A DNA stretch of 59,907 nucleotides from Bacteroidota bacterium (GCA_026391845.1 JAPLDG010000338.1:1-59907); one strand, 5' to 3'; counted from the first letter of the stretch, positions 14,901 through 50,422 are shown. Translations and numbers: made by a program. Notes: generated by a model from the letters alone, not told the origin.

Positions 14901-15532
14901 ACACCCGAATAAGGCGCAACGTTTGTCAGGTTTGTCCATGTGCCGCCACCATTCGTACTCACTTGCCACAGGTAGGAGATTCCCGTACCCGCCGCAGAAA
15001 CACTAAATGAAGTATTCTGCCCCACCAGCGCAGTTCTGTCAACCGGCTGGGTATTGATTACAGGTGGCTGATTGATGGTTAAGATTCCGTTTGTATAGGT
15101 AGCCGCCAGCGTATTGCCGCTTACATCGCTGTATTCGCAGTTCCCCGATGTCTGGGTATCCCAGGTCAGGCTCGTCGTGCTGGTCTCCGTGTGAAACCTC
15201 AGTTCCACCAGGGTAGTGTTTCCAAAATTTGCTGCAGACGTGTTGGCCCAACTGATAACCACCTTGTTACCGGTTGAATTGATGATCAGAAATCCGGTGG
15301 TTAGCGAAGGGTGAAGGTTCTTGTAACCCAGATAGGTTAGTTTGGTGTTGTCAAAATTCAGCACCAGTGAAATTGCCCCGACACCATTGCAGTTGGTCAC
15401 TGTGATGGGTACCGCCGTGTCGCCGGGACAACTTGTCAGCGTCCCGGCCGTGGTGCCTATCTGGGACCGGACGATCCCGGCCCAGATCACCATCATGAAT
15501 AGTGGTAGTATTTTTAAAATCATTGTCTTCAT
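11957..15532 (-). CDS. T9SS-secreted surface protein with alternating cohesin-like and Ig-like modules
   Basis: Signal peptide. Four cohesin-like modules (...CPG..(V/I)P(I/V).VT(N/D)...(A/G)(I/F)SL.(L/F).(F/Y)(D/N)...LTY.GY.NL...). Three Ig-like modules (QPV..T...G..TSFSVSA.GTG..YLWQVSTNGG.TWTNL). Two copies of the ...TITVAGGGTT(F/Y)I(I/V)Q..G...MIAGQKISYL.GTKV... module. C-terminal T9SS sorting domain (FKVYPNPTTGRFTLEL...GFYFIRVVNG). Confidence 0.8.
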   Translation of the reverse strand: MKTMILKILPLFMMVIWAGIVRSQIGTTAGTLTSCPGDTAVPITVTNCNGVGAISLVLNFDNTKLTYLGYKNLHPSLTTGFLIINSTGNKVVISWANTSAANFGNTTLVELRFHTETSTTSLTWDTQTSGNCEYSDVSGNTLAATYTNGILTINQPPVINTQPVDRTALVGQNTSFSVSAAGTGISYLWQVSTNGGGTWTNLTNVAPYSGVTTPTLSLTNAQLTYNGYKYHCRLTGTCTPVVFTNDVTLTVINPITTTLPTPVNGSCPGSLLVPVTVTNFTDVAAFSLTFSYNASCLTYTGYQNLNGALTAVGSIFVVNATGGKVYMTWSNAAAATIGSGTLVELQFTSATGTSPLTWDVATEGNCEYTVLSGSRITSVFVDGNETIFALPTVTGHPSNRIIAKGQNTTFGATATGSGLSYLWQISTNGGSSFTDMTNTGYYSGVTTPTMSVTGAQLELSGYQFRCKISGSCLPVVFSNPAILTVLPNVLTTSGSATACPGQIVIPVNVTDFIGVASFSLALSYNSSVLTYAGYGNLNPAVSGGIFSASASGGKVLLSWSNITSATIAGGSVLVELKFDGVSGTSSLNWDTQTAGNCEFSDLSGQVIFSTWTNGSATINTAPLITVQPVNKTIYAAGSTSFSVSATGTGVGYLWQVSTNGGTTWTNLTNVSPYTGVTTPTLTINPASAGMNGYLYRCVVSGSCTQSLSNALTLQYNTVGSGQTTCYNATQTITVAGGGTTFIIQTGGNASMIAGQKISYLAGTKVSQGGYLHGSITTSGGYCPMQPPQSDPAQLTVTQAAITTTPGAVSGSCTGNLSIPVNVTNCTNVGSISLTMIYDTTKMTYEGYHSVNASLTGGLLVVNHTGNKVIFSWASATSASIGTGTLVQYRFKANAGISTTLTWDTPTSGACEYSDPAGAIITSFYANANISVAANALIVNAGPDINMQTSSVQLNGSATGGTAPYTWLWSPAGSLSNPTLSNPLASPASTTSYTLTATDKNGCAGSDVMDVVVGVITSDLTLQGITISNSGNCSNALQTITVAGGGTTYIVQATGSVTMIAGQKISYLNGTKVYLGGNLHGYITTSGQYCNTLLAPMVASAVEEILPSSQDESFFKVYPNPTTGRFTLELSDENLSGQVYVALFGTCGEKILEDEMTGESKKEFSLSGKPTGFYFIRVVNGKNGLTKKILKQ

Positions 15533-15545
15533 GGCGCACCGATTT

Positions 15546-20726: not shown

Positions 20727-20780
20727 AATGAACTGTTTTTAAATTTAGGGTTGGTATTTCATCGATTTAATTTCTTTTCA

Positions 20781-29618: not shown

Positions 29619-29681
29619 TCATGGCGGGTAATTCATAAAACAGAGATCATCAAAACACTTCAGATCATAGTCACCGGCCTG

Positions 29682-31922: not shown

Positions 31923-32137
31923 CCATACCTGCAAAAGTGATCAGTGTCACAGGGTCAAACGCCCTAGTAACCATTGAAGATATTGAATATCAGGCAAGTT
32001 TGCTACTACTGGACGATGTTCATCCGGGCGATTTTGTGATGCTGCATGCAGGTTTTGCCATCGGGAAAGTGGATCGTGAAGAAGCGGCAGAAACGTTGCG
32101 GCTTTTAAACGAAATTGCCAACAACAGCCCCGCCTGA
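31913..32137 (+). CDS. hypC: Hydrogenase assembly chaperone HypC
   Basis: MCLAIPAKV N-terminus with the essential Cys2; 74 aa; overlaps the hypF end and the hypD start. Confidence 0.9.
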   Translation: MCLAIPAKVISVTGSNALVTIEDIEYQASLLLLDDVHPGDFVMLHAGFAIGKVDREEAAETLRLLNEIANNSPA

Positions 32138-33216
32138 TGCAATACATCGACGAATACCGGACAAAAACGTTAATTCTTTCCATTTCAGAGGAGCTGAAAA
32201 AGAGGTCAAAAAAAGAGATCACACTGATGGAGGTCTGCGGCGGACATACCATGGCGATTCATCGGTTTGGGCTTCATGCTTTGCTGCCCTCCAACATTCA
32301 CCTGTTGTCCGGTCCCGGCTGCCCGGTTTGCGTGTCCAGCCAGCATTTCATTGATACTGCCATCGCTTACAGTCAGCTTCCCGATGCCATCATCACGACA
32401 TACGGCGATTTGATACGAGTACCCGGTTCAACCGGCTCACTGGAAAAAGAGAAAGCGAACGGCCGCGATATCCGGATCATCTATTCAGTGCTGGATGCGT
32501 TGGAAATTGCAAAGAACAACCCCGAACGGCCTCTGTTTTTCCCGGGCATCGGGTTTGAAACCACTGCTCCGGCAACGGCAGCGGCCATCATGGAGGCGAA
32601 AAAGGAAAAAATAGCCAATTTTTTTGTGCTGAGTGCGCACAAAGTCATGCCCCCGGTGATGGAGGCGCTGGTGAAAGAAGGTGTTAAAATCGACGGCTTC
32701 ATCGCACCCGGCCATGTGAGCGCCATAACAGGCACTGAAATCTACCATGATCTGGCAACAATTTACGGACTTGGCGTTGTCGTAGCCGGGTTTGAACCGG
32801 CCGACATGATGCAGGCCATCCTCATGCTCGTAGTGCAACTTGAAGAAGAGACACCCAAAGTTGAAATCCAGTATAAACGCATCGTTCATCCCGAAGGGAA
32901 CAGGATTGCCCGGGAGTTGCTGTCGAAAGTTTTTGAACTGAAAGATGACAATTGGCGCGGACTTGGGATAATTCGCAACAGCGGCCTCAAAATCAGGGAA
33001 GATTATTCGGATTTTGATGCCGAAAAAAGATATCCGATCACCATACCCGAACCAAATGAACCCAAAGGGTGCATTTGCGGTTCGATTCTGAAGGGGCTGA
33101 AATCGCCCGGCCAGTGCCCGCTGTTTGGCAAAACATGCACACCTTCCGACCCTGTTGGAGCATGCATGGTATCGGGAGAAGGAACTTGTGCCACCTATTA
33201 TAAATACCGCTCATGA
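32137..33216 (+). CDS. hypD: Hydrogenase maturation Fe-S protein HypD
   Basis: Motifs CGGHT, GPGCPVCV and FETTAP, plus the C-terminal Cys cluster. 359 aa. Confidence 0.95.
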   Translation: MQYIDEYRTKTLILSISEELKKRSKKEITLMEVCGGHTMAIHRFGLHALLPSNIHLLSGPGCPVCVSSQHFIDTAIAYSQLPDAIITTYGDLIRVPGSTGSLEKEKANGRDIRIIYSVLDALEIAKNNPERPLFFPGIGFETTAPATAAAIMEAKKEKIANFFVLSAHKVMPPVMEALVKEGVKIDGFIAPGHVSAITGTEIYHDLATIYGLGVVVAGFEPADMMQAILMLVVQLEEETPKVEIQYKRIVHPEGNRIARELLSKVFELKDDNWRGLGIIRNSGLKIREDYSDFDAEKRYPITIPEPNEPKGCICGSILKGLKSPGQCPLFGKTCTPSDPVGACMVSGEGTCATYYKYRS

Positions 33217-34235
33217 TCAACGGGGAGGAAAAAATATTGCTAAGCCATGGGAATGGTGGCCGGATGATGCACAAACTGATTGAGAATTTGTTCCTGCGGC
33301 ATTTTGGGAACAAAATCCTCGATGAACAAACAGATGCAGCCATTCTGCCGGTCGATGGTGCTGAGATCGCCTTTACAACAGACTCCTTTGTAATCGATCC
33401 GCTCTTCTTCCCCGGCGGGAATATCGGAAAACTTGCTGTTTGCGGTACTGTAAATGACCTTGCCGTTTCGGGCGCGGTGCCGCGCTATATCAGTGTTTCT
33501 TTTATCCTGGAAGAGGGTTTTCCGATATCCGAACTTGAAGTGATCGTTAAATCTCTTGCCGAGGAGGCGCAGTGCGCGCAGGTGACCATCGTTACCGGTG
33601 ATACCAAGGTTGTAAACAAAGGAAAATGCGACAAGTTGTTTATCAATACCGCCGGGATCGGAATGGTGCGGAAAGAGGACAAACTGGTTGGAAAGGCGCG
33701 GAATATCAACCCGGGAGATGTGATTCTGATCAACGGGACGATCGGGGATCATGGCATGGCCGTTATGAATGCCCGTGAATCATTCAATTTCAAATCGCCG
33801 GTGAAATCGGATTGTGCATCGCTCAACCATCTGATACGCGAAGTGCTGGATCATTCACCGGGAGTAAAATTCATGCGGGATCCCACACGAGGAGGCGTGG
33901 CAACGGTTCTCAACGAACTGGCCGCAAAAATAAACCAGGGAATTGAGATCAGGGAACAAGCAATCCCGGTTACGAAAGGGGTCAGCGCCATGTGCGAAAT
34001 TCTCGGCTTCGACCCCCTCCATATTGCCAACGAAGGGAAGGTTCTGATAGTGGCATCCGAAGAGGAAAGCCTGAATATCCTGGAAATAATGAAGAAACAC
34101 CCGTTGGGAGCTCAAAGCGCCATGATCGGACGTGTCGTGAATGACCATCCGGGGAAAGTGGTGTTAAAAACCGAAACAGGTGGCAAACGGATCATCGATT
34201 CATTGGTTGGCGATCCACTGCCACGAATTTGCTGA
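33213..34235 (+). CDS. hypE: Hydrogenase maturation carbamoyl dehydratase HypE
   Basis: PurM-like fold motifs and the diagnostic C-terminal ...PRIC. Confidence 0.95.
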   Translation: MINGEEKILLSHGNGGRMMHKLIENLFLRHFGNKILDEQTDAAILPVDGAEIAFTTDSFVIDPLFFPGGNIGKLAVCGTVNDLAVSGAVPRYISVSFILEEGFPISELEVIVKSLAEEAQCAQVTIVTGDTKVVNKGKCDKLFINTAGIGMVRKEDKLVGKARNINPGDVILINGTIGDHGMAVMNARESFNFKSPVKSDCASLNHLIREVLDHSPGVKFMRDPTRGGVATVLNELAAKINQGIEIREQAIPVTKGVSAMCEILGFDPLHIANEGKVLIVASEEESLNILEIMKKHPLGAQSAMIGRVVNDHPGKVVLKTETGGKRIIDSLVGDPLPRIC

Positions 34236-34247
34236 AACAAAACATGC

Positions 34248-34589
34248 ATGCACGAATTATCACTGGCCCTGGAAGTAATTGAACTGGTGCAACGAGAGGC
34301 AGGTAAACAAGGGTTATCTGCCATTCAGGAGATCCTGATTGAAGTCGGCGACCTGAGTGGTGTTGAAGCGGACGCTTTTCAATCGGCGCTGGAACTGCTG
34401 GTAAAAAACACCATCCTGAATGATGCAGTGGTGAAGATTATCCAGACTCACGGGAAAGGCATATGTGCTGCATGCAACAAGGAATTTGAAATGAAAAACC
34501 GGCTCGATACATGCCCCGGATGCCTGTGTTTTCCTTCGGAAATCACAGGCGGAAAAGAGTTCAGGGTGTTGTCGCTGCTTGCGGAATAA
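34248..34589 (+). CDS. hypA: Nickel insertion metallochaperone HypA
   Basis: MHELS N-terminal Ni site. Zn site CAAC...CPGC. 113 aa. Confidence 0.9.
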   Translation: MHELSLALEVIELVQREAGKQGLSAIQEILIEVGDLSGVEADAFQSALELLVKNTILNDAVVKIIQTHGKGICAACNKEFEMKNRLDTCPGCLCFPSEITGGKEFRVLSLLAE

Positions 34590-34608
34590 ACCAGATAATT
34601 TAACGACT

Positions 34609-35403
34609 ATGTGCGAAACATGCGGATGCGGAAACCCAGACGAATTTAAAATTCATGATCATCTTCACGACCATGATCATCTTCACGACCACGATCATCC
34701 CCACGACCACGATCACGACCATCATGGGCACAGTCACTCGCACGCGCATGAACACGGGCAAAAAAAGACGATCAGTCTCAATATGGACATTCTTTCGGAA
34801 AACAATCGTCAGGCTGAGCGCAACCGTGGCTATTTTGAGGGCAACCATATTCTTTGTCTGAACATGGTGAGCTCTCCGGGTTCCGGCAAAACCACCATTC
34901 TTGAAAAGACCATCCAATCTTTGATCTCCACACATAAAATTTTTGTCATTGAGGGTGATCAGCAAACAACCAGGGACGCAGAGCGGATTGAGAAATCCGG
35001 CGCCCCGGCGATCCAGATAAACACAGGATCGGGATGCCACCTCGATGCAAAGATGATCCAGCTGGCATTGAAAAAAATGGAGGTTGACAAACAATCGATC
35101 CTGTTCATTGAAAATGTGGGCAACCTCGTTTGCCCGGCCATGTTTGACCTTGGAGAACGGAAGCGGGTCGTGGTGATCAGCGTGACGGAGGGTGATGACA
35201 AGCCTTTGAAGTATCCCTACATGTTCCAGACCTCAAACCTCTGCATCATCAATAAAACCGACCTGTTGCCTTATGTCGATTTCAACGTGGAAACAGCCAT
35301 GAGTAACGCCCGGCAACTGAAGCCTGACCTTGAGTTCATCCTGGTGTCGGCAAAAACCGGGGAAGGACTGGATAAATGGTACAAATGGCTTGAAATTCAG
35401 TAA
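34609..35403 (+). CDS. hypB: Nickel-binding GTPase HypB with a His-rich tract
   Basis: MCETCGCG N-terminal high-affinity Ni motif, His-rich stretch HDHLHDHDHLHDHDHPHDHDHDHHGHSHSHAHEHG, P-loop GSPGSGKTT, and ENVGNLVCP. Confidence 0.9.
   Translation: MCETCGCGNPDEFKIHDHLHDHDHLHDHDHPHDHDHDHHGHSHSHAHEHGQKKTISLNMDILSENNRQAERNRGYFEGNHILCLNMVSSPGSGKTTILEKTIQSLISTHKIFVIEGDQQTTRDAERIEKSGAPAIQINTGSGCHLDAKMIQLALKKMEVDKQSILFIENVGNLVCPAMFDLGERKRVVVISVTEGDDKPLKYPYMFQTSNLCIINKTDLLPYVDFNVETAMSNARQLKPDLEFILVSAKTGEGLDKWYKWLEIQ
34654..34725 (+). repeat. 18-bp tandem repeat encoding the HypB His-rich tract
   Basis: CATGATCATCTTCACGAC occurs twice exactly (34654-34671 and 34672-34689), followed by two degenerate copies. 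Confidence 0.8.
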
Positions 35404-35415
35404 CCCGCAAGAGAG

Positions 35416-35880
35416 CTACCTGATTTTTTCAACCAACTGCCTTACTCTTTCGATTGCCTCAGGAATCGCTCCAGCTACTTCCGGTGAAAGATCCATGCCC
35501 ATATCCTGAAAATCCTTTACGGAGATAGCAATGAGATAAAGCTTTGGCATATTGCCCAGCAGAATGGCAGAGTCGATCAGGTCTTTCAGGCCGATTTCAT
35601 GGGCGCTGAGTTGCCTTGGAAAATCCTTCGCAAACCTTGGCTGCAGCACCCTCACATGGCCGGGCGGGTGCTGGTCAAGAGAGGCATCCACGATGATGAT
35701 GGTTTTATAGGACTGTATAAATCCAAGCAGATGAAACCCGCCTGTACCTCCATCCATTACATCGGCGCCCATGATTCCATCCTTTTCGAGCTCGTTGACG
35801 ACATGAATGCCAACGCCTTCATCGTTCATCAATAAATTACCGATCCCGAGAACCAGGATGTTGTTAACAAATTCAGGCAA
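35416..35880 (-). CDS. hyaD: [NiFe] hydrogenase maturation endopeptidase (HyaD/HupD family)
   Basis: (V/L)LG(I/V)GN.L..D(D/E)G.G motif (ILVLGIGNLLMNDEGVGIHV). 154 aa. Last gene of the hydrogenase operon. Confidence 0.85.
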   Translation of the reverse strand: MPEFVNNILVLGIGNLLMNDEGVGIHVVNELEKDGIMGADVMDGGTGGFHLLGFIQSYKTIIIVDASLDQHPPGHVRVLQPRFAKDFPRQLSAHEIGLKDLIDSAILLGNMPKLYLIAISVKDFQDMGMDLSPEVAGAIPEAIERVRQLVEKIR

Positions 35881-35900
35881 CCTTTCGGGTTATTAAGTAG

Positions 35901-36623
35901 TTAGATGTCTTTTGGACAATCCTCGGTTCTGTTATCGTGGCGCTCGATCACATCTTCTTCAATGAATTTCCAGCCACCAATCATCGAGGAAGTTACCCCC
36001 CGGCGTTCAATATAATCGTGATAGAATACAAGGTAAACATGGATCATGGCAAAAAGGATAAATCCCCACATCAGGACATGATGGATCTGCCTGACCTGCA
36101 TATCTCCCCCGAGAAAAGGGACTATCCAGGAAAAAAGTTTGGGCAGGAAAGCATTGCTCATAGCAGCATACATCCCAAACCCGGTAAGGCATTGCAACAA
36201 AAAGATCAGAAATGTGATGAAATAAATGAAACTGGCCAGGGAATTATGGCCGATCGAATCGATGTTTTTGTTGGTAACCTGGAGGATGTCAACCTTGATC
36301 ACTTCAAGCATCTCTTTCCACTGGCAGCGTTTTAGCGGGATGAAATTATACCACCGCGAAAATTCGTTCCCGGTGAATCCCCAGTAAATCCTGAAAATAA
36401 AATTAAAGAAAAACAGGAAAGCGCTGATAAAATGGATGAAACGTACGGTTCCAAACCAATAATTGAAAGATGCTTCGGTGCCTTTCATAAAAGCAGGAGG
36501 GTCGCCGATAACATAACCGGTGACACACAGCACGGTGATACACAGTGCATTAATCCAATGGTAGAGACGAACAGGCATCTCCCAGACATGCACTTCACGC
36601 AGAGGGACAGATCGGTTTCTCAT
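35901..36623 (-). CDS. hyaC: Ni/Fe-hydrogenase b-type cytochrome subunit
   Basis: Four predicted TM helices with conserved His (VRLYHW..., FIHF, HHVLMW). 240 aa. Immediately downstream of the large subunit. Confidence 0.85.
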   Translation of the reverse strand: MRNRSVPLREVHVWEMPVRLYHWINALCITVLCVTGYVIGDPPAFMKGTEASFNYWFGTVRFIHFISAFLFFFNFIFRIYWGFTGNEFSRWYNFIPLKRCQWKEMLEVIKVDILQVTNKNIDSIGHNSLASFIYFITFLIFLLQCLTGFGMYAAMSNAFLPKLFSWIVPFLGGDMQVRQIHHVLMWGFILFAMIHVYLVFYHDYIERRGVTSSMIGGWKFIEEDVIERHDNRTEDCPKDI

Positions 36624-36626
36624 GGC

Positions 36627-38345
36627 TCAATAGGTTTTCAGGTCATGAATGGTAGTTCCGTTTTCGTCGTACAAATGAACGGCACAGGCCAGGCAAGGGT
36701 CGAAAGAGTGAATGGTACGGAGTACCTCCAATGGGATTTTGGCATCGGCAACCGGGGTTCCGATCAGGGATTCCTCGTAAGCCGAGCGTTGCCCCTTGAG
36801 ATCACGTGGTGAGGCATTCCAGGTGGTTGGCACCACCAGCTGATAATTAGCGATCTTTTTATCTTCAATCACGATGAAATGAGAAAGCGCTCCACGAGGG
36901 GCTTCGACCATGCCGATGCCTTTTGCCTGTTTAGGCCATGATTCAGGTTCCCATTTGGCATTATTTTGTGTGCGTGAATCGCCATTTTTGATATTTGCCA
37001 GAAGTTGCTGATAAAACTCCAGCGCCCATCCGCATACAAGTTTGGTCTCCAGCCCCCTGGCCGCAGTGCGTCCCAATGTTGAGAACAGAGCAGCTACCGG
37101 AACATCCAAAGCTTTTAATGTACTCTCTATCACCTCTTTATAATCGGCCCGGCCGGATGCATAACCAACAAGCATGCGCGATAACGGTCCGACTTCCATC
37201 GGGTTTCCTTTCCAGCGAGGAGTCTTCACCCAACTGTATTTCTGTGTAAAATCGAGATGCTCGTAAGGCGGTTTGGGTCCTGTATAATCGAATTTGGTCT
37301 CACCTTCCCAGGGATGCAAACCGGTTTTATCACCCTTGGAATATTGATACCATGAATTGTTTATATATTCCTGGATCTGTTCCGGATCCTCTGCTTTAAC
37401 CTCATGAATCTTGCTCAGGTCCCGTCCCAATATTGCGCCCCGGGGCATTTTAAAACTCTCGGGATTGTTGTAGCCGTTGGTTGGGAAATCGCCAAAGGCC
37501 AGATAATTTGTCAACCCGCCGCCAATGGCTCCCCAATCTTTATAAAACGATGCAATGGCCAGTAAATCCGGAATATACACCTGGTCAACAAATACCTTGG
37601 CATCTTCAAAAAGCTGCCCCACAAAGGCAAGCCGTTCTGCATTGATGGCGTTTGCCTCATCAATGTTAATGGAACAGGGAACGCCTCCGACCAGATAATT
37701 GGGATGAGGGTTTTTCCCGCCAAAAACGGTGTGAACCTTTACAAGTTCCTTTTGCCATTCCAGCGCTTCAAGATAATGTGCAACGGCAATCAGATTCACT
37801 TCGGGTGGAAGTTTGTAGGCTTTATGCCCCCAATATCCACCAGCGAAAATACCCAGCTGGCCGCTCTCCACGAAATTTTTAAACTTTTTCTGAATATCTG
37901 TAAAATAACCGACCGAACTTTTTGGCCAGGCAGAGATGCTTTGTGCAATCCGGGATGCTTCAGCAGGATTGGCTTTCAGCGCCGAAACCACATCGACCCA
38001 GTCGAGAGCATGCAGCTGATAAAAATGAACCACGTGATCCTGGATATACAAAGCGTTTGCCATCAGGTTCCGGATGAGTTCAGCATTGGGCGGAACAGAG
38101 ATACCCAGCGCATTTTCGACGGTTCTGACGGAAGTGAGCGAATGTGTTGAAGTACAAACACCACAAACGCGTCCGACAAAAGCCCATGCATCGCGGGGAT
38201 CCCTGCCCTTCAAAATGGTCTCAATGCCCCTCACCATCGTGCCTGCACTCCAGGCATCCGTGATTTTGCCATCGGTAACTTCAATTTCAACCCGCAGATG
38301 ACCTTCTATACGGGTGATCGGATCTATTACGATTCTTTCTGCCAT
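36627..38345 (-). CDS. hyaB: [NiFe] hydrogenase large subunit (group 1, membrane-bound uptake type)
   Basis: N-terminal RIEGH and RVCGVCTSTH motifs. C-terminal DPCLACAVH Ni-Fe ligands, using Cys rather than Sec. Confidence 0.95.
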   Translation of the reverse strand: MAERIVIDPITRIEGHLRVEIEVTDGKITDAWSAGTMVRGIETILKGRDPRDAWAFVGRVCGVCTSTHSLTSVRTVENALGISVPPNAELIRNLMANALYIQDHVVHFYQLHALDWVDVVSALKANPAEASRIAQSISAWPKSSVGYFTDIQKKFKNFVESGQLGIFAGGYWGHKAYKLPPEVNLIAVAHYLEALEWQKELVKVHTVFGGKNPHPNYLVGGVPCSINIDEANAINAERLAFVGQLFEDAKVFVDQVYIPDLLAIASFYKDWGAIGGGLTNYLAFGDFPTNGYNNPESFKMPRGAILGRDLSKIHEVKAEDPEQIQEYINNSWYQYSKGDKTGLHPWEGETKFDYTGPKPPYEHLDFTQKYSWVKTPRWKGNPMEVGPLSRMLVGYASGRADYKEVIESTLKALDVPVAALFSTLGRTAARGLETKLVCGWALEFYQQLLANIKNGDSRTQNNAKWEPESWPKQAKGIGMVEAPRGALSHFIVIEDKKIANYQLVVPTTWNASPRDLKGQRSAYEESLIGTPVADAKIPLEVLRTIHSFDPCLACAVHLYDENGTTIHDLKTY

Positions 38346-38347
38346 GA

Positions 38348-39463
38348 CTATGATTGTTTCGTGGTTTCAACTTTGGAACCTGCTACAGGCTCTTCATTTT
38401 TTATCTCTTTATTCTTGCGGATATTGGTCACAATGGCATGTCCGGCAATACCGACAGCTGTTGCAACACCAAGTCCCAGCCCGATTTTATCGGCGGTAGT
38501 TTCGATGCCGAAACCGGCTACCTCAGGCAAATGCTGATAAAATGGGCCATTGTCCCAGAAACCGGCTTCCGCACAACCGATGCACGGGTGCCCCGATTGA
38601 ATGGGATAACTCACACTATCGTTCCACTTGATGATTCCACAGGAGTTGTAGGTAACAGGTCCTTTGCATCCCATTTTATAGAGACAATAGCCGCGCTTTG
38701 CTCCTTCGTCGTCGAAGGACTCAACAAACAAACCGGCATCAAAATTGGCCCTGCGATAACAGGTATCATGCACTCTGCGGGAATAAAATGCCTGGGGCCG
38801 GCCCAATCCGTCGAGTTGCGGAATCCGGTCGAAGGTAAGCAGATGAACTACAACGCCTGCCATAACATCAGCGATGGGCGGACAGCCCTGTACGTTGATA
38901 ACCGGTTTGCCACTTATAACTTTATGAACAGGTTGTGCTCCGGTCGGATTGGGACTCGCAGCCTGAACACATCCTGCTGATGCACAATTGCCCCATGCAA
39001 CAACGGCTTTGCAGTTCTTTACAGCCTCCTGAAGAATCTGAAGGGCACTGCGGCCTCCGATGCAACAATACGCTTCGTTTTCGGTAGGAATAGATCCCTC
39101 CACCATCACGATGTACTCGCCCGGATATTTCGCCATTACCGCTTTGTATGCTTCTTCGGCCTGGAATCCCGAAGCAGCCATCAGGGTTTCCTGATAATCA
39201 AGGGAGATCTTGTTCAACACTATGTCTGCGACAAGCGGATGGGATGCCCTGATGAATGACTCGCTGCAGCAGGTACATTCCTGGAAATGAAACCAGATGA
39301 CCGGAAGCCTTGGCTTTGTCTCCAGCGCTTTGACAATTTGGCCTATCCCACTGGCTTCCAACCCGAGGAAAGCAGCCATGGTGGCGCAAAATTTAAGGAA
39401 ATCCCGTCGGGACACTCCGTTCCCTCTGGCTTCCTCGTAAAATGAAGGTCTCTGATTCTCCAT
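38348..39463 (-). CDS. hyaA: [NiFe] hydrogenase small subunit with Tat signal
   Basis: Twin-arginine signal VSRRDFLKFCATMAAFLG. Fe-S cluster cysteines (ECTCCSES, GCPP, CIGC). Start placed at MENQRP (39463). Confidence 0.95.
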   Translation of the reverse strand: MENQRPSFYEEARGNGVSRRDFLKFCATMAAFLGLEASGIGQIVKALETKPRLPVIWFHFQECTCCSESFIRASHPLVADIVLNKISLDYQETLMAASGFQAEEAYKAVMAKYPGEYIVMVEGSIPTENEAYCCIGGRSALQILQEAVKNCKAVVAWGNCASAGCVQAASPNPTGAQPVHKVISGKPVINVQGCPPIADVMAGVVVHLLTFDRIPQLDGLGRPQAFYSRRVHDTCYRRANFDAGLFVESFDDEGAKRGYCLYKMGCKGPVTYNSCGIIKWNDSVSYPIQSGHPCIGCAEAGFWDNGPFYQHLPEVAGFGIETTADKIGLGLGVATAVGIAGHAIVTNIRKNKEIKNEEPVAGSKVETTKQS

Positions 39464-39654
39464 AAAGCGATTGATTTTAGATATGATTACGGGTCCGAAA
39501 TATATGAAAGAAATGTCATATGTCAATCATCGGGACTTAATTTATACAAAGTCTCAATAAGCAAAACTGCACCTTTGTACTTCCCACTTTCGTTTGTCCT
39601 TAAAATGGGCGTTAGTTGGATAAGCTTATTATATGTTCATGTTAAATTTCTGAA

Positions 39655-39662
39655 TACTTTTG
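39655..39662 (+). promoter_or_regulatory. Candidate -7 promoter box (TACTTTTG) for the tandem paralogue array
   Basis: Matches TAnnTTTG and lies 81 nt upstream of the ATG at 39744. Confidence 0.3.
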
Positions 39663-39743
39663 CTATAATTGTCATTTAATATTATAACTTTACCCTCAAA
39701 TTAAACCCAATGGTTCCATCATCTTAACCCTAAAGAAATCCAA

Positions 39744-41108
39744 ATGAAAAAAGTTCTACTCTTTGCAATTTTTGCACTCTCCATCGGCGCGATTGCGCAA
39801 AACAAACGGCCAAACATTCAAACTCCACCTCCATCACGACATTCGCTGCATGATGTTCAGGGGATTCAGGAGGATGACGGATTGAAAAAAACCGGCGTCT
39901 ATTCCGAAATGAATTCAACACATTTCACTGACAATCAAATGCTTAACCATCGTGAATTGATGCAGATATGGGACAGCATTTTCAGCTTTCAATGGGACAC
40001 CCTGACCGACGGATGGCAACTCGGATATAAATACATTGACATGGTCTATAATGCCAAACACTATCTGACAAATTACCTGTGGCAAGCCTGGAACGGCACC
40101 GCCTGGGAGAATTCCGTCAAAGTCACCTATACCTATAACGCCTACAACCTTCAAACCAGCTTCCTGGGCCAAAGGTGGGACGCCGCCGCCTGGGTAAATG
40201 CAAGTCAATACCTCTACACCTATGATGCAAGCAACAATATGACAAGCCGGTTATACCAGCTATGGACCAGCGGTGCGTGGGCAAATGTAAATCAATATAT
40301 TTACACCTATGATGCGGACAATAATCTGACGAGCCAAATGAGGCAAACATGGAGCAGCGGCGCTTGGGTCAATAATTATCAGACTATTTTCACCTATGAT
40401 GCGGCCAACAATCAAACCAATTCTCTGAACCAGAACTGGATCAACGACGCATGGGTGAGTGTCTATCAAACCATCCATACTTACAACGCAAATAATTATA
40501 AGACAAATTCCTTATCCCAAACATGGAACGGTGTTGCCTGGGTTGATTCCTTCAGCGGCGTTTATACCTATGATGTGAACAATAATCAGACAAATTACGA
40601 TGAGCAACGGTGGAATGGCAATACCTGGGAGAATAACTATCAATATTCTTGTACCTACGATGCCAACAATAATAGGACAAAAGAAACAGAACAATATTGG
40701 ATTGGCAACACCTGGGTCAATTCCTCTCAATTTAATTACGCGTATGATGTCAACAATTTCATGATAAGTGATGCATACAGATATTGGAATGACGCAGGCA
40801 ATCTGACCTACGGCGATAGTACCTACTACTTTTCCCATGCCGTAATGGGAACAGACGACCTGCCTGCGCAGGAAGGAAGCATTTCGGTTTACCCCAATCC
40901 CAGCCAGGGTAAATTTACCATAAACTGCAGTAAAACAATAAGTTCAATCGAAATTTTCAACACACTCGGAGAGCAGGTCTGCAACGATCAAAAATTCCAT
41001 CTGCCAACATCGAAGGAAATCGACTTATCGGGTTGTGATAAAGGAATTTACCTGGTGAAAATTTTAATTGGAGAGACAAGATACAACAAAAAGATTGTGA
41101 TCCGGTAA
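39744..41108 (+). CDS. T9SS-secreted 29-residue-repeat protein, paralogue 1 of 3
   Basis: Signal peptide MKKVLLFAIFALSIGAIAQ. About 9.5 repeats of W..(G/A).W.N.....Y.Y(D/N)..NN.T. T9SS CTD ISVYPNPSQGKFTINCSKTISSIEIFN...GIYLVKILIG. Confidence 0.75.
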   Translation: MKKVLLFAIFALSIGAIAQNKRPNIQTPPPSRHSLHDVQGIQEDDGLKKTGVYSEMNSTHFTDNQMLNHRELMQIWDSIFSFQWDTLTDGWQLGYKYIDMVYNAKHYLTNYLWQAWNGTAWENSVKVTYTYNAYNLQTSFLGQRWDAAAWVNASQYLYTYDASNNMTSRLYQLWTSGAWANVNQYIYTYDADNNLTSQMRQTWSSGAWVNNYQTIFTYDAANNQTNSLNQNWINDAWVSVYQTIHTYNANNYKTNSLSQTWNGVAWVDSFSGVYTYDVNNNQTNYDEQRWNGNTWENNYQYSCTYDANNNRTKETEQYWIGNTWVNSSQFNYAYDVNNFMISDAYRYWNDAGNLTYGDSTYYFSHAVMGTDDLPAQEGSISVYPNPSQGKFTINCSKTISSIEIFNTLGEQVCNDQKFHLPTSKEIDLSGCDKGIYLVKILIGETRYNKKIVIR

Positions 41109-41128
41109 ACGCGCTAAAAGAGATCCCT

Positions 41129-42493
41129 ATGAAAAAACTACTACTCCTGGCGATTCTTGCATTGTCAATCAGTGTTTTTGCACAAAGCAAACGGCCAGAC
41201 AATCATATTCAACCTCCATCACGACATTCACTGCATGACAATCAGCGGATTAATGAAGATCATGGATTGAAACTAACCGGTGTTTGTTCGAAAATGAACC
41301 CGCTGCAACCCATCAGCCATCAAACGCCTGACCCGCGGGAATTAGTGCAGATATGGGACAGCATTTACAACTTTCAATGGGATACACTCACCAACGGTTG
41401 GCAACCCGAATACAAATATGCTGACCTGGTCTATAATACCAACAATTATCTGACAAGTTACCTGGGTCTGTTTTGGAATGGCAACGCCTGGGTGAATGCC
41501 TCAAAAGCCAGCTATACCTATAATGAATACAACCTTGAGACAAGTTTCCTCAGCCAAAGCTGGGATGGTACCGCCTGGGTAAATGCAAATCAATACCTCT
41601 ATACCTATGATGCGCACAATAATCTGACAAACAGGATTTTTCAGCATTGGACCAGCGGTGCATGGATAAATAACGACCAGTATGTTTCCACATTTGATGC
41701 GTCCAATAATCTGACAAGCCAGCTAAGGCAAACATGGAGCAGCGGCGTGTGGACAAATGCCTATCAAAACCTTAATACCTACGATGCAAATAACAACAGG
41801 ACGGGTTCCCTGTCTCAAAACTGGACCGGCAGCGTCTGGCTGAATTCGTACCAGATCTTATATACGTTCAATGCAGACAATTTTTTGACAAACAAATTAA
41901 CCCAAAACTGGAACGGCATCGCCTGGGTTGATGCCAATGATGGTGTATACAACTACGATGCAAACAATAATCTGATGAGTTACTTTGAGCAATACTGGAA
42001 TGGAAGTGTCTGGGAGAATTCGCTTCAATATTTTTGCACCTATGATGTGTTCTATAATCTGACCAGGCAAACGGGACAATATTGGATTGGCAACACCTGG
42101 GTAAATTCCTATCAAAACGGATATACTTACGATGCCAACAATTTTATAAAAAGCGAGACATCCAGATATTGGAATGACGCGGGTAATCTGACCTATGGCG
42201 ATAGTACCTACTACTTTTCCCATGCCGTGATGGGAACAAACGACCGGCCTGCGCAGGAAGGAAACATTTCGGTTTATCCCAATCCAACACATGGAAAATT
42301 TACCATCAACTGCAGTAAAACAATAAGTTCAATCGAGATTTTCAACACACCCGGAGAGCGGATCTGCGACGATCAAAAGTTCAATCTGCAAACATCGAAG
42401 GAAATCGACTTATCGGGTTGTGATAGAGGTATTTATCTGGTGAAAATTGTAATTGGAGACAAAAGATACATCAAAAAGATTGTCATTCAGTAA
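41129..42493 (+). CDS. T9SS-secreted 29-residue-repeat protein, paralogue 2 of 3
   Basis: Same length (454 aa) and architecture as paralogue 1. Aligns without gaps by eye. Confidence 0.75.
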   Translation: MKKLLLLAILALSISVFAQSKRPDNHIQPPSRHSLHDNQRINEDHGLKLTGVCSKMNPLQPISHQTPDPRELVQIWDSIYNFQWDTLTNGWQPEYKYADLVYNTNNYLTSYLGLFWNGNAWVNASKASYTYNEYNLETSFLSQSWDGTAWVNANQYLYTYDAHNNLTNRIFQHWTSGAWINNDQYVSTFDASNNLTSQLRQTWSSGVWTNAYQNLNTYDANNNRTGSLSQNWTGSVWLNSYQILYTFNADNFLTNKLTQNWNGIAWVDANDGVYNYDANNNLMSYFEQYWNGSVWENSLQYFCTYDVFYNLTRQTGQYWIGNTWVNSYQNGYTYDANNFIKSETSRYWNDAGNLTYGDSTYYFSHAVMGTNDRPAQEGNISVYPNPTHGKFTINCSKTISSIEIFNTPGERICDDQKFNLQTSKEIDLSGCDRGIYLVKIVIGDKRYIKKIVIQ

Positions 42494-42513
42494 CCGTGCT
42501 AAAATAGATACAC

Positions 42514-43878
42514 ATGAAAAGAATTCTACTCTTTGCAATTTTCGCACTATCCATCGGCGCTATTGCACAAAACAAACGGCCAGACATTCAGACTCCACCT
42601 CCATCACGATATTCACAACATGATGTTCAGGGGATTCAGGAGGATGACGGATTGATAACAACCGGCTTCTGTTCCGAACCAAATTCATCACTATTTGCTG
42701 ATAATCTGACGTTTAATGAACGGGAATTGATGCAGATAATTGACAGCATGTATCGTTGGCGATGGGACACACTCGGCAATGGATGGCAGCTGGGAAACAA
42801 GTACATTGACCTTGTTTACAATGCCAAAAATTATCTGACAAGCTACATTGGGCAAACCTGGAATGGCAGCGCATGGCGGAATGTCTCTAAAGCCCTGATC
42901 ACCTACGATGCATACAACAATCAAACGAGCAATATAGATCTAAGCTGGGATGGCGCCACCTGGGTGAATTCAAATCAGTACCTCTACACCTATGATGCAG
43001 GCAATAATCTGACAAATGAGATACTCCAGCATTGGATCACCGGGGAATGGGTAAATATCAACCAGTACACGAACACCTATGATGGAAGCAATAAACTGAT
43101 AAACCAGATATACCAGCGTTGGCTTGGCGGCGCCTGGGAGAATAGGACTCTGTACCTTCATACCTATGATGCGGCCAACAATCTGACAAGTTCCCTGACC
43201 CAAAACTGGATCAACGACACATGGGTGGACACCTATCAAACCCTCAGCACTTACAACGCAAATAATAATAGAACAAATTCCTTACTGCAAAAATGGAACG
43301 GTGCTGACTGGGTTAATTTCCAAAACATTACTTATACCCATGATGCCAATAATAACATGACTGGTTACATCATGCTAAAGTGGAATGGAAGCGCATGGGA
43401 GAATAACAATCAATATTTCCACACCTATGATGCCTCCAATAATCTGATAAAAGAATTAAGTCAATATTGGACTGGCAACACATGGGTAAACTACTATAAG
43501 TACAATTACGCTTACGATGCCAACAATTTCCCCCAAAGCCAATCCCATATATATTATGATGACGCAGGCAATATAACCTTTGGCGATAGCACCTACTACT
43601 TTTTCCATACCGTGATGGGGACAGACGACCTGCCTGAGCAGGAAGAAAGCATTTCGGTTTATCCCAATCCAACCCCTGGAAAATTTACCATAAACTGCAG
43701 TAAAACAATAAGTTCAATTGAGGTTTTCAACACACCCGGAGATCGGATTTATGCTGATCAAAAATTCACCCGGCAAAAATCCAACGATATCGATTTATCA
43801 GGCTACGAAAAAGGAATCTACCTGATAAAAATTTCTGCCGGAACAGCAAATTACAAGAGAAAGATTGTGATTCGGTAA
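42514..43878 (+). CDS. T9SS-secreted 29-residue-repeat protein, paralogue 3 of 3
   Basis: Same length (454 aa) and architecture. The N-terminal 40 aa are nearly identical to paralogue 1. Confidence 0.75.
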   Translation: MKRILLFAIFALSIGAIAQNKRPDIQTPPPSRYSQHDVQGIQEDDGLITTGFCSEPNSSLFADNLTFNERELMQIIDSMYRWRWDTLGNGWQLGNKYIDLVYNAKNYLTSYIGQTWNGSAWRNVSKALITYDAYNNQTSNIDLSWDGATWVNSNQYLYTYDAGNNLTNEILQHWITGEWVNINQYTNTYDGSNKLINQIYQRWLGGAWENRTLYLHTYDAANNLTSSLTQNWINDTWVDTYQTLSTYNANNNRTNSLLQKWNGADWVNFQNITYTHDANNNMTGYIMLKWNGSAWENNNQYFHTYDASNNLIKELSQYWTGNTWVNYYKYNYAYDANNFPQSQSHIYYDDAGNITFGDSTYYFFHTVMGTDDLPEQEESISVYPNPTPGKFTINCSKTISSIEVFNTPGDRIYADQKFTRQKSNDIDLSGYEKGIYLIKISAGTANYKRKIVIR

Positions 43879-43946
43879 CCTTGATACAACAGTGAAACCG
43901 AAAACCAGATAGCTTCAACCACTGAAATAACATAAATTGTAACCCC

Positions 43947-44582
43947 ATGAAAGTAATAGCTATAAACGGGAGTCCAAAAAAAGAAGGAAACACCTTTCAC
44001 GCACTGAAAATGGTTGGCAATGAACTTCTTGCCGGTGGTATTGAATTCGAGATTCTGCATGTCGGACATAAACTGATTCATGGTTGTCTGGCCTGTGGTA
44101 AATGTGCGGAAAACAGGGATGAACAATGCAGCATTAAAACCGATGATTTAAACCAATGGATACAAATGATCAAAGTAGCCGATGGTATTATCATCGGTTC
44201 ACCAGTTCATTATTCAGGGATTGGTGGTGCGATGAAATGCTTTTTAGACAGGTTGTTTTATGTCTCAGGATCAAATGGAAACCTGTTTCGCCATAAAGTT
44301 GCAGCAGCTGTGGTTGCGGTTAGACGAACCGGTGGTTCGGCCACCCTGGATGGCTTATACCATTATCTGACCTACGCTGAAATGATCGTTGCAACTTCCG
44401 GGTATTGGAATGTTATTCATGGCAGAAAACCCGACGAGGTTTTACAAGACAGTGAAGGCGTGCAAGTTATGCGTGTTTTGGGAAAAAACATGGCCTGGTT
44501 GCTGAAAATGAAAGAGGCTGCATCAGGCTCGGTTGAACCGCCAATGTCCGAAAAAAAGGTTGTTACAAATTTTATCAGATAA
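43947..44582 (+). CDS. Flavodoxin-like NAD(P)H-dependent FMN reductase / iron-sulfur flavoprotein-like protein
   Basis: MKVIAINGSPKKEGNT opening, CLACGKC cluster motif, and (I/V)IGSPVY/H..(I/M)(S/G) flavin-binding pattern. Confidence 0.7.
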   Translation: MKVIAINGSPKKEGNTFHALKMVGNELLAGGIEFEILHVGHKLIHGCLACGKCAENRDEQCSIKTDDLNQWIQMIKVADGIIIGSPVHYSGIGGAMKCFLDRLFYVSGSNGNLFRHKVAAAVVAVRRTGGSATLDGLYHYLTYAEMIVATSGYWNVIHGRKPDEVLQDSEGVQVMRVLGKNMAWLLKMKEAASGSVEPPMSEKKVVTNFIR

Positions 44583-46065: not shown

Positions 46066-46073
46066 TACCTTTG
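46066..46073 (+). promoter_or_regulatory. Candidate -7 promoter box (TACCTTTG) for fbaA
   Basis: Matches TAnnTTTG, lies 32 nt upstream of the ATG at 46106, and has TTTG repeats 15-25 nt further upstream. Confidence 0.35.
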
Positions 46074-49326: not shown

Positions 49327-49390
49327 GTTCTGAGAGTTAAATTAATAGCGTAAAAATAGGTAAAATTATTTACAAAAATAATTTACTTTT

Positions 49391-50422
49391 GTGAAGATGA
49401 ACGACAATCTTGACCCAACCGGTAAACTGTTAAACCCTGCTGAAAAAGAAATTGAAAGAACCTTGCGCCCCGGAGGCTTTATTGAATTTTCGGGGCAGGA
49501 AGCCATTGTTGAGAACCTTAAAATTTTCGTCCAGGCAGCCATCCGGCGCGGTGAGGCATTGGACCATGTATTGCTTCACGGCCCTCCCGGATTGGGAAAA
49601 ACAACCCTGGCACATATCATTGCAAATGAGCTGAATGTAAATATGCGTGTGACCTCAGGCCCTGTCCTTGACAAGCCGGGCGACCTGGCCGGGCTGCTCA
49701 CCGGTCTCGAACCCAATGATGTGTTGTTTATTGATGAAATCCACCGGTTATCGCCGGTTGTTGAAGAATATCTCTATTCGGCCATGGAAGATTATAAAAT
49801 CGACATCATGCTCGAAACCGGGCCGAATGCCCGCAGCATCCAGATTAAACTCAACCCTTTTACCCTTGTCGGCGCTACCACACGTTCGGGATTGCTCACA
49901 GCACCTCTTCGCTCCCGGTTTGGGATCAATTCGCGGCTTAACTACTATAAGGCGGAGATTCTCGACAAGATCATCCGTCGTTCGGCAGAAATTCTGGATG
50001 TGCCGATCAACCAGGCTGCCACGGCTGAAATTGCACGGAGGAGCCGCGGAACTCCCCGCATTGCCAACCTTTTATTGAGAAGGGTACGCGATTTCGCGCA
50101 GATCAAAGGCAACGGATCCATCGATATAGCCATCAGTCAGTACGCACTCGGAGCGCTGAATGTCGATAAAAACGGTCTGGATGAAATGGACAACAAAATT
50201 CTTGTCACCATCATCGACAAATTCAAAGGTGGTCCGGTCGGCCTGGGCACCATTGCCACGGCTGTGTCCGAAGATTCCGGCACCATTGAGGAGGTGTACG
50301 AGCCTTTCCTTATCCAGGAGGGCTATCTTATGCGAACGCCTCGCGGACGTGAAGTAACCGAGCTGGCCTACCGTCATCTCGGAAAAATAAAGACCGGTGA
50401 ACATCCCAGGTTGTTCGATTAA
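49391..50422 (+). CDS. ruvB: Holliday junction branch-migration ATPase RuvB
   Basis: LRP..(F/L).EF.GQ, Walker [10 protein letters not shown], Walker B DEIHRL, and sensor motifs. The start is either the GTG at 49391 or the ATG at 49397. A TACTTTTG box at 49384-49391 hints at a very short leader. Confidence 0.95.

Follow-up and report, generated by a model that had tools for sequence, protein, structure and literature searches.

The Rhs/YD shells chosen for comparison were Tse5 (8cp6) and Tse15 (8uy4) from the T6SS, Tc toxin BC (4igl and 4o9x), the teneurins, and mosquito SGS1. The canonical YD repeat (TIGR01643, PF05593) has a period of ~21 residues. Related hairpin structures come from DUF3836 (PF12930) proteins of Bacteroides and Parabacteroides: 3MSW (BF3112), 4R03 (BDI_3222), and 4R8O (BVU_1206). 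Our search found no literature on DUF3836, PF12930, or its three PDB entries, and nothing relevant that joins YD repeats with T9SS. Among T9SS proteins, PG1798 of P. gingivalis is a 405/423-aa CTD-bearing cargo annotated with RHS repeats (PMC7712824). Experiments identify it as a T9SS substrate (PMC5121618), and it is immunoreactive in vivo (PMC9722745); an A-LPS-modified form was not seen (PMC12773672).

Here, we analyzed a 59,907-nt stretch of DNA from a Bacteroidota bacterium (GCA_026391845.1 JAPLDG010000338.1:1-59907; hereafter, the window) that encodes three tandem paralogues with a YD-like repeat. On balance, we favor the explanation that these are T9SS-exported hairpin-sheet modules for binding or surface coating, encoded in a tandem-duplicated array. 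The features of the locus are as follows.

39527-39743, no strand: divergent intergenic region, bounded by copy 1 and the NiFe hydrogenase small-subunit gene
39655-39662, + strand: TACTTTTG, a candidate -7 promoter box of the Bacteroidota type (TAnnTTTG), lying 81 nt upstream of the first ATG
39744-41108, + strand: copy 1, ORF of 454 aa, head-to-tail with copies 2 and 3
39744-39800, + strand: copy 1 signal peptide (aa 1-19)
39801-39956, + strand: copy 1 disordered linker (aa 20-71)
39957-40853, + strand: copy 1 YD-like hairpin-repeat passenger (aa 72-370)
40884-41105, + strand: copy 1 T9SS type A CTD (aa 381-454)
41109-41128, + strand: 20-nt spacer between copies 1 and 2, ACGCGCTAAAAGAGATCCCT
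41129-42493, + strand: copy 2, 454 aa, architecture as copy 1
41342-42238, + strand: copy 2 repeat passenger
42269-42490, + strand: copy 2 CTD
42494-42513, + strand: 20-nt spacer between copies 2 and 3, CCGTGCTAAAATAGATACAC
42514-43878, + strand: copy 3, 454 aa, architecture as copy 1
42727-43623, + strand: copy 3 repeat passenger
43654-43875, + strand: copy 3 CTD

An earlier note on this DNA had described three 454-aa ORFs with a start-to-start distance of 1385 bp, twice, that align without gaps. The coordinates are exact, and a MAFFT alignment has 454 columns and 0 gaps. The spacers, which the note took to be related, are identical at 14/20 positions (counted by hand). The likeness that it also saw in the 25 nt 5′ of copy 1 is more limited: by eye, those 20–25 nt share only a CTAAA..A.ATCC core with the spacers. 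A 20-nt spacer leaves no room for a promoter or terminator, implying co-transcription, and a terminator scan found no terminator-like site on the + strand of the array. Judging only from spacer length and the missing terminators, the three copies would be co-transcribed, with one promoter probably driving all of them. The TACTTTTG box is the sole TAnnTTTG ahead of the array, and the spacers contain none. Because this motif is not enriched across the window (29 found versus 41 expected), the box is a candidate whose presence is no evidence of function. Sigma-70-type promoter and terminator scans gave matches no better than those in shuffled sequence.

All three copies carry the hallmarks of T9SS cargo, as the note had proposed. 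Residues 382–454 match PF18962 (E 6e-15 to 2e-14, 54–56 bits, cut-off 27) and TIGR04183 (E 8e-14 to 7e-12, 45–51 bits, cut-off 23) above the curated cut-offs, and a profile comparison with CTDs solved within T9SS translocon complexes (8glk_D and 8glj_D) gave E about 1e-12. The N-terminus reads as a Sec signal peptide (MKK, a hydrophobic core, and A-x-A|Q), within which the AF2 model places a helix at residues 2–18. A18 and Q19 are nearly invariant among family members and likely form the signal-peptidase I site. Besides the array, the window holds two further CTD-bearing ORFs, which fits a T9SS-bearing organism. Following established T9SS biology, the Sec signal peptide would direct each protein to the periplasm, and the C-terminal type A sorting domain would then target it to the translocon, followed by release or by attachment to the cell surface or vesicles, surface anchoring being uncertain. 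Cohesin- and dockerin-bearing T9SS cargo is encoded in the same window.

The passenger contains eight canonical repeat units of 29 aa (starts 116 to 319), preceded by a degenerate one at 87 and followed by a partial one at 348, in agreement with an earlier count of ~9.5 repeats. The motif first given for them, W..W.N, is adequate as shorthand; the actual spacing is W-x4-W-x-N within a full motif of W-x4-W-x-N...T-Y-D-A-x-N-N-x-T....Q. In the three copies, W1 and W6 are invariant and N8, T15, Y16, D17, N20, and Q28 are strongly conserved, and family-wide conservation of W1, W6, and Y16 is 91–99%. TRF detected no 87-nt tandem repeat at the DNA level, suggesting that the internal repeats are old.

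In the AF2 model (pLDDT 84–96 over the eight canonical repeats and 72–96 over the whole passenger, 72–370), each repeat contributes two ~10-residue strands to a sheet of ~20 strands over ~300 aa, and residues 15–70 are disordered. We rejected the propeller and beta-solenoid folds raised in the earlier note, as AF2 and Foldseek instead give an antiparallel sheet of hairpins. The passenger is thus predicted to consist of a ~50-residue disordered linker followed by one antiparallel beta-sheet of ~10 long hairpins. One 29-residue unit would correspond to one hairpin, with Y-D-A-N-N making one turn and W-N-G-S-A-W framing the other.

Together, the model, the fold search, and the profiles show the predicted passenger to be a long-hairpin form of the YD/Rhs repeat, as found in small Bacteroides DUF3836 proteins. 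Foldseek ranks Rhs/YD shells as its 16 best PDB matches (E 1.5e-10 to 6e-7, probability 0.97–1.0), with the DUF3836 structures next. At E <= 0.01, RHS_repeat (PF05593) matches 42/60 family members (best 1.4e-13), and so does PF12930 (42/60, best 2.2e-11). The YD/Rhs resemblance seen by eye therefore agrees with both the fold search and the family-wide Pfam matches. Within the window copies, PF05593 gives a sub-threshold E of 0.33 in copy 1 and no match in copies 2 and 3, TIGR01643 gives no match, and PF12930 gives 18.3 bits, 10.8 bits, and no match, all below its cut-off of 25. Foldseek target TM-scores for the DUF3836 structures are 0.72 for 3msw (rmsd 2.5), 0.66 for 4r8o, and 0.56 for 4r03 (rmsd range 2.5–3.3 Å), and the family profile matches 4r8o with E 5e-6 over ~three repeats. 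On these profile matches, we consider the array repeat homologous to DUF3836 and the window proteins no formal members. The note had seen no named family for this repeat; profile and fold searches place it in the RHS_repeat/DUF3836 class.

With Rhs shells at the top of the Foldseek list and RHS_repeat matches across the family, the array proteins might be read as a toxin-encapsulation and delivery system comparable to T6SS Rhs effectors and Tc toxin BC. However, the query TM-scores against Rhs shells are 0.1–0.3 with rmsd >20 Å, indicating a local match and no whole shell. The sheet spans only ~300 residues (~20 strands), and with only ~10 hairpins a closed cocoon is impossible. A search of the copies against Pfam and NCBIfam at E <= 1 matched no Rhs-associated core, enzyme, or toxin domain, and the C-terminus is occupied by a T9SS CTD. 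The genes 3′ of the copies are a paralogue and then FMN reductase, with no immunity gene. The toxin-capsule reading is therefore highly improbable and effectively refuted: the fold match is local, and the core, toxin, and immunity gene are lacking. Most likely, the array proteins are non-enzymatic exported modules for binding, adhesion, or surface coating and not an enzyme or toxin capsule, in line with long relatives in which the module is fused to non-catalytic extracellular modules only.

Strand alternation, the only basis used here for assigning the two faces and for judging the overall shape (an open strip, a curled cup, or a closed form), would put a conserved aromatic ladder (W1, W6, Y12/14/16, L22/26) on face A and most hypervariable positions, rich in Tyr, Ser, and Asn, on face B. 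Positions on the inferred conserved face have a mean entropy of 1.79 bits, compared with 2.66 bits for those on the variable face, and Tyr (33/144) and Ser (23/144) dominate the hypervariable positions. With the faces assigned in this way, the variable face is likely an exposed interaction surface, and the conserved aromatic face could itself bind ligand.

The latter idea can be extended to a reading in which the Trp/Tyr ladder is a long, planar functional platform for binding polysaccharides or surfaces, akin to a type A CBM, and the variable face is incidental. The passenger composition (7% Trp, 11% Tyr, 15% Asn, few charged residues) and the near-invariance of W1, W6, and Y16 in the family would suit such a platform. 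Long relatives fuse the repeat module to non-catalytic extracellular modules only (CBM_4_9, PKD, cohesin, and dockerin), and these fusions, together with the cohesin/dockerin cargo of the window, point in the same direction. Yet the repeat matches no CBM family, a fused CBM suggests that the repeat module is no carbohydrate binder, and the conserved YD-type residues may simply keep the hairpins joined, the role usually ascribed to them in YD/Rhs and DUF3836 repeats. Invariant ligand faces are also rare, though possible, in such fast-evolving proteins. Overall, we consider a dedicated aromatic platform unlikely.

The three copies are each other's best matches, with pairwise aa identities of 59–67% (64–67% in the best-match search); they differ at 23–30% of nucleotides, with dS of 0.6–0.9. 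The claim that their ends are nearly identical at the nucleotide level was overstated. Only nt 1081–1260 are highly similar in all three pairs (81–91%), whereas the 5′ 180 nt reach 84–91% for copies 1 and 3 only, and the last 105 nt are 91% identical for copies 1 and 2 versus 64–70% for the other pairs. The center had been estimated as roughly two-thirds identical; aa identity over the repeats is somewhat lower (55–62%). The copies carry a mosaic signal (chi-square p = 4e-6), and dS between copies 1 and 2 is 0.2–0.3 in the C-cap and CTD versus 0.8–1.1 in the repeats. As the longest identical tracts between copies are 35–38 nt, there has been no recent gene conversion. We propose that tandem duplication of a 1385-bp unit (the gene plus a 20-nt leader) in this lineage generated the array, that the copies later swapped segments by gene conversion, and that their divergence, under relaxed and near-neutral constraint, has been concentrated at exposed positions.

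A trivial origin of the triplication would be an assembly artefact in which strain variants were concatenated. The window probably represents a contig of metagenomic origin, and we found no second assembly of the array locus in genome contig and metagenome searches. The genome contig search for relatives was built on a 12-sequence alignment (a single-protein query gave no match), and the metagenome search returned only one locus, L081, 47% identical and without flank synteny. Against an artefact, the nucleotide differences and dS far exceed those expected between strains, the spacers differ within a regular register, the mosaic blocks are short, and comparable tandem arrays of the family occur in unrelated MAGs, including one with a 20-nt spacer (L037). 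On the strength of this divergence and recurrence, we rejected the artefact as exceedingly unlikely.

The triplication is specific to this lineage; a single-copy positional orthologue (P0004), 50% identical to the copies, lies on a contig that shares the downstream flank genes. Positional homologues are 36–44% identical, while flank genes are 77–96% identical (hydrogenase genes 95%). Nucleotide synteny with three related MAGs (81–82% identity) stops at about 39560, suggesting a variable islet made up of the cargo gene and its promoter. The adjacency to hydrogenase is seen in 4 loci, where it reflects synteny by descent, and does not extend across the family. A search with the repeat region alone recovered 6,416 representative clusters, which places the family among the larger uncharacterized T9SS cargo classes, in environmental Bacteroidota and Ignavibacteria. 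Members have 6–12 repeats and 367–550 aa, so the strict length conservation claimed earlier holds for the young triplication and not for the family. No conserved operon partner was found, the best neighbor cluster occurring in 10/80 loci.

The earlier note had interpreted the locus as a candidate for an undescribed, diversifying secreted or surface recognition system. In such a system, the variable face would be under positive selection, driven by phage, predators, or kin or ligand recognition, for instance, and the tandem cassettes would act as a recombining repertoire. The note's picture of a fixed scaffold with variable inter-scaffold positions is supported, as dN/dS is 0.13–0.25 at conserved repeat positions and 0.50–0.73 at hypervariable ones. 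The Tyr/Ser richness of the variable positions, which is also typical of known binding paratopes, would agree with diversification, as would segment exchange between copies, the extremely fast divergence of the locus relative to its flanks, and the recurrence of tandem duplication in the family. Nevertheless, no dN/dS value is above 1, including those at hypervariable sites that were chosen independently, and values of 0.5–0.7 at the Tyr/Ser-rich positions do not demonstrate positive selection. With dS near saturation this test is low-powered and could have missed episodic selection; dN/dS <1 fits plain relaxed constraint and alone is no sign of a binding surface. Further, the short identical tracts argue against recent conversion, 66/80 loci are single-copy, no inverted repeats around the promoter region mark an invertible promoter or switching element, and the 80 loci share no conserved partner gene. 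A diversifying recognition system thus seems improbable, and with thousands of database members the family is hardly undescribed in the sense intended.

More speculatively, the whole family might serve as a hypervariable YD-sheet scaffold that is widespread and displayed through T9SS; selection would tune its exposed Tyr/Ser-rich face, and tandem cassettes would swap segments to create new specificities. If true, the family would amount to a bacterial equivalent of the repeat-based variable binders, serving phage or predator evasion or ligand capture; we regard this as quite doubtful. Returning to our preferred explanation of exported hairpin-sheet modules in a duplicated array, membership of a very large, unstudied family makes the array a real and orderly case but no new kind of system. 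Its main value is as a clean natural experiment on recently duplicated tandem genes, and it reveals no new mechanism. The ligands of the family would inform the surface biology of anaerobic freshwater and sediment Bacteroidales, and protein engineers might find the scaffold attractive for its fixed Trp/Tyr ladder, variable Tyr/Ser face, and modular repeat number.

Compared to the known systems, the array takes the YD/Rhs hairpin repeat into a secreted format that is short and has no shell. It shares with Rhs/YD shells an antiparallel beta-hairpin sheet and probably the Y-x-Y-D...N/G-x-L/T turn motif, but its repeat period is 29 residues instead of ~21, with strands of ~10 residues, and the extra W-x4-W motif is specific to its family. 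Where the shells close over many tens of strands and are exported by T6SS or Tc, the array proteins have ~10 hairpins, use T9SS, and lack an N-terminal plug, Rhs core, aspartyl autoprotease, toxin, or immunity gene. DUF3836 proteins share the long-hairpin repeat flavor (Y.YD.NN..T......W....W.N), with a Trp spacing of W-x6-W in 4r8o versus W-x4-W in the array repeat. They are stand-alone proteins of ~100–140 aa with 3–4 hairpins and no T9SS CTD, whereas the array proteins combine ~10 hairpins with a linker and CTD in 454 aa. By annotation alone, PG1798 resembles the array proteins in architecture and size class, although it is single-copy and belongs to a host-associated organism.

The array consists of three plus-strand ORFs, each encoding a putative T9SS cargo protein:

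39744-41108, plus strand, copy 1, 454 aa
41129-42493, plus strand, copy 2, 454 aa
42514-43878, plus strand, copy 3, 454 aa

The geometry reported in the earlier note is real: the ORF coordinates give a start-to-start distance of 1385 bp for both intervals, and MAFFT aligns the three proteins over 454 columns with zero gaps. The spacers between copies are 20 nt each, ACGCGCTAAAAGAGATCCCT and CCGTGCTAAAATAGATACAC, and agree at 14 of 20 positions when counted by hand. Copies 2 and 3 share 67% and 64% aa identity with copy 1 and 58.6% with each other, with 55-62% in the repeat region and pairwise nucleotide identities of 77%, 75%, and 70%. The claim that both ends are nearly identical was overstated. 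The sole stretch at 81-91% identity in every pair is nt 1081-1260; elsewhere the resemblance depends on the pair, involving mainly copies 1 and 3 at the 5′ end and mainly copies 1 and 2 over the last 105 nt.

All three copies end in a type A T9SS sorting domain (CTD; residues 382-454), modeled by AlphaFold2 as a small beta-sandwich. PF18962 (54-56 bits, cut-off 27) and TIGR04183 (45-51 bits, cut-off 23) both score above their cut-offs in every copy, supporting the previous assignment as T9SS cargo. By established T9SS biology, the proteins would be exported through Sec, recognized at the CTD by the translocon, and then released or attached to the surface or to vesicles.

The passenger (residues 72-370) is built from the 29-residue repeat described earlier, seen in Trp residues at 116, 145, and so on up to 319, each followed five residues later by a second Trp. 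A further pair at 348 is found in copies 1 and 2 only. Each copy thus carries eight canonical units, one degenerate unit (at 87), and one partial unit (at 348). Using a 60-sequence family alignment as input, AlphaFold2 modeled the passenger as all-beta, with pLDDT of 72-96 across residues 72-370 as a whole and 84-96 within the eight canonical units; residues 15-70 are predicted to be disordered. Each unit contributes two strands of ~10 residues. The first runs from W6 to Y16 (repeat numbering) and is followed by a turn at D17-N21, and the second extends from L22 as far as W1 of the following unit, where a tight N-G-S-A turn comes next.

Every one of the top 16 Foldseek matches in the PDB is an Rhs/YD-repeat protein (E 1.5e-10 to 6e-7, probability 0.97-1.0), including T6SS Rhs cores, Tse5, Tse15, YenBC, TcdB2-TccC3, teneurins, and SGS1. 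The query TM-scores to these proteins are only 0.1-0.3, indicating that the match covers the hairpin sheet and not the whole shell. The three crystal structures of DUF3836 are also matched, and well when scaled to the targets, with target TM-scores of 0.72 (3msw, rmsd 2.5 Å), 0.66 (4r8o), and 0.56 (4r03). The copies themselves fall below the Pfam threshold, reaching at best 18.3 bits for DUF3836, whose cut-off is 25, and E 0.33 for RHS_repeat. Among 60 family members, RHS_repeat matches 42 (best E 1.4e-13) and DUF3836 likewise 42 (best E 2.2e-11), and the family profile matches the DUF3836 structure 4r8o across about three repeats (E 5e-6). On the basis of the fold, Pfam, and profile matches, the repeat is a YD-repeat variant with a long hairpin and a W-x4-W motif. 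The YD/Rhs resemblance suspected in the earlier note was therefore correct, and the repeat does have a named home, in the RHS_repeat/DUF3836 class.

The two folds previously proposed for the repeat, a beta-solenoid and a propeller, are both ruled out by the hairpin-sheet model and the Rhs/YD and DUF3836 matches. An Rhs capsule is ruled out as well: each copy has only ~20 strands and matches no model of an Rhs core or toxin in Pfam or NCBIfam, and what lies downstream is a paralogue, followed by genes for an FMN reductase and an ABM monooxygenase, not an immunity gene.

Strand alternation predicts two unlike faces for the YD-type sheet. One is conserved (W1, W6, N8, Y12/14/16, L22/26, and Q28; mean entropy 1.79 bits), and the opposite face holds most of the hypervariable positions (mean entropy 2.66 bits), at which Tyr and Ser are commonest. 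Whole-gene dN/dS among the copies is 0.31-0.38 (Nei-Gojobori). With repeat positions binned by family entropy, window copies left out, dN/dS climbed from 0.13-0.25 at the 12 best-conserved positions through 0.26-0.36 at intermediate positions to 0.50-0.73 at the six hypervariable positions (9, 10, 12, 25, 27, and 29). The variability between scaffold residues is thus borne out. The diversifying selection proposed for it is not, as no class of repeat positions exceeds a dN/dS of 1, with dS so near saturation that episodic positive selection could have escaped the test. Relaxed constraint on exposed positions is sufficient to account for the variability, and we consider it improbable that the copies are hypervariable YD-sheet binders shaped by selection. 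Asn makes up 15% of the passenger, Tyr 11%, and Thr 10%. The low GC content of the array (0.41-0.43 over 40001-44000, against a typical 0.45-0.52) and the strong A-over-T skew of its coding strand (0.17-0.19) match this composition and need not reflect a foreign origin.

The copies belong to a very large, uncharacterized database family of T9SS cargo. A word-indexed search returned 572 homologues; every match listed carries a CTD, and the annotations of these go no further than 'T9SS type A sorting domain-containing protein' or 'hypothetical'. When the repeat region was searched exhaustively on its own, CTD excluded, it retrieved 6,416 representative clusters at E ≤ 1e-3, of which 3,409 remained at E ≤ 1e-10 and 596 at E ≤ 1e-30; members are mostly of 420-530 aa. 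Relatives are encoded on 179 stretches of GTDB species genomes. The 80 loci that we kept all come from environmental MAGs, of Bacteroidales, Lentimicrobiaceae, Saprospiraceae, Chitinophagales, Flavobacteriales, Sphingobacteriaceae, Prolixibacteraceae, and Ignavibacteriales. A period of 29 predominates (649 spacings of exactly 29), but members have 6-12 repeats and 367-550 aa, so the strict length conservation noted earlier holds within the three copies and belongs to the young triplication only. In rare long members the repeat module is joined with CBM_4_9, PKD, cohesin, and dockerin domains, with no enzyme or toxin fusions among them. No neighboring gene is conserved family-wide, the top neighbor cluster occurring in 10/80 loci, and nothing points to a multi-component system.

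One family member within about 10 kb is the rule (66/80 loci), and 14/80 have two to four. The triplication is lineage-specific by sequence comparison, because the copies are mutual best matches (64-67%, against 50% for P0004, the best outside protein) and the syntenic P0004 contig has a single copy. On that contig, a 212-aa gene, FBP aldolase, and Usp come after the copy, the same order as in the window (211-aa FMN reductase, 359-aa aldolase, 283-aa Usp). Same-index repeats are 58% identical across copies compared to 41% for different-index repeats, and TRF found no 87-nt DNA tandem repeat in the copies, so the repeat array is much older than the gene duplication. Informative sites favor grouping copies 1 and 3 in the first 250 nt (47 vs 29) and copies 1 and 2 in the last 325 nt (49 vs 16; heterogeneity p = 4e-6). 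In the repeats dS is 0.8-1.1, but it drops to 0.2-0.3 in the C-cap for all pairs and in the CTD for copies 1 and 2. The mosaic sites and local drop in dS indicate that segments were exchanged between copies, though not recently, as the longest identical tracts are just 35-38 nt. Two MAG loci also carry tandem family members, far more diverged (37-44% identical):

L037, 85-1593 and 1614-3185, two members, 20-nt spacer
L010, 8413-9960, 10001-11311, and 11351-11821, three members, 39-40 nt spacers

These arrays suggest that tandem duplication has recurred, with the same short leader.

Three further MAG loci (L008, L015, and L042) have the same divergently transcribed NiFe-hydrogenase operon as the window, with flank proteins 77-96% identical. 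A single family member occupies the equivalent site in each, sharing only 36-44% identity with the copies and with the other two. At the nucleotide level, identity to these loci is 81-82% and stops sharply at ~39560, ~35 nt past the start of the hydrogenase small-subunit gene. Downstream of the cargo gene, synteny is absent from these three loci but present in the P0004 contig. The cargo gene and its promoter thus form a quickly evolving islet adjoining a conserved operon.

The hydrogenase operon itself (35901-39526, minus strand) is complete by Pfam, with small subunit, large subunit, and cytochrome b; the small subunit bears a Tat-type SRRDFLKF motif. Its proteins are 90-96% identical to those of three lake and sediment Bacteroidales MAGs. 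Hyp maturation genes likely lie upstream (~29619-35889), where a long, HypB-type His-rich stretch was read by eye in ORF 34495-35403.

Across 60 homologues, D77-S78 and D358-S359 are the sole invariant non-Trp residues of the passenger. The Bacteroidota O-glycosylation sequon is D-(S/T)-(A/I/L/V/M/T), which both pairs fit together with the next residue. Every copy has exactly three such sites, confined to the caps:

Residues 77-79 (copy 1, nt 39972-39980), D-S/T-x site
Residues 85-87, D-S/T-x site
Residues 358-360 (copy 1, nt 40815-40823), D-S/T-x site

The third residue is sequon-compatible in 154/168 family members at the N-cap and 89/113 at the C-cap; these caps span residues 72-85 and 354-368, respectively. 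These sites may be conserved glycosylation sites or just structural caps.

The window encodes two other large T9SS cargo genes, back to back:

11957-15559, minus strand, T9SS cargo gene
15546-20738, minus strand, T9SS cargo gene

One has two cohesin domains, Ig_3, and a CTD; the other combines a Kelch propeller and a right-handed beta-helix with CarboxypepD_reg, a type I dockerin (scoring 29.7 bits, above the cut-off of 22.9), and a CTD. Together they may form a cohesin-dockerin assembly on the surface of a Bacteroidota cell, anchored through T9SS. P0220, a long member of the repeat family, likewise has dockerin and cohesin modules.

The three copies are probably co-transcribed, because the spacers are so short, the array has no terminator-like site on the plus strand, and a single TAnnTTTG box lies upstream, 81 nt before copy 1. 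This motif is not enriched across the window (29 found, 41 expected). Plus-strand boxes at 46066-46073 and 49384-49391, 13-40 nt ahead of the ORFs for FBP aldolase (46106) and at 49397, are compatible with Bacteroidota-type promoters.

From its anatomy, the passenger would act as a non-catalytic binding or surface-coat module with its variable polar face exposed. The nearest experimentally handled analogue, by annotation only, is P. gingivalis PG1798/PGN_1767 ('PG99, RHS repeat protein', 405/423 aa).
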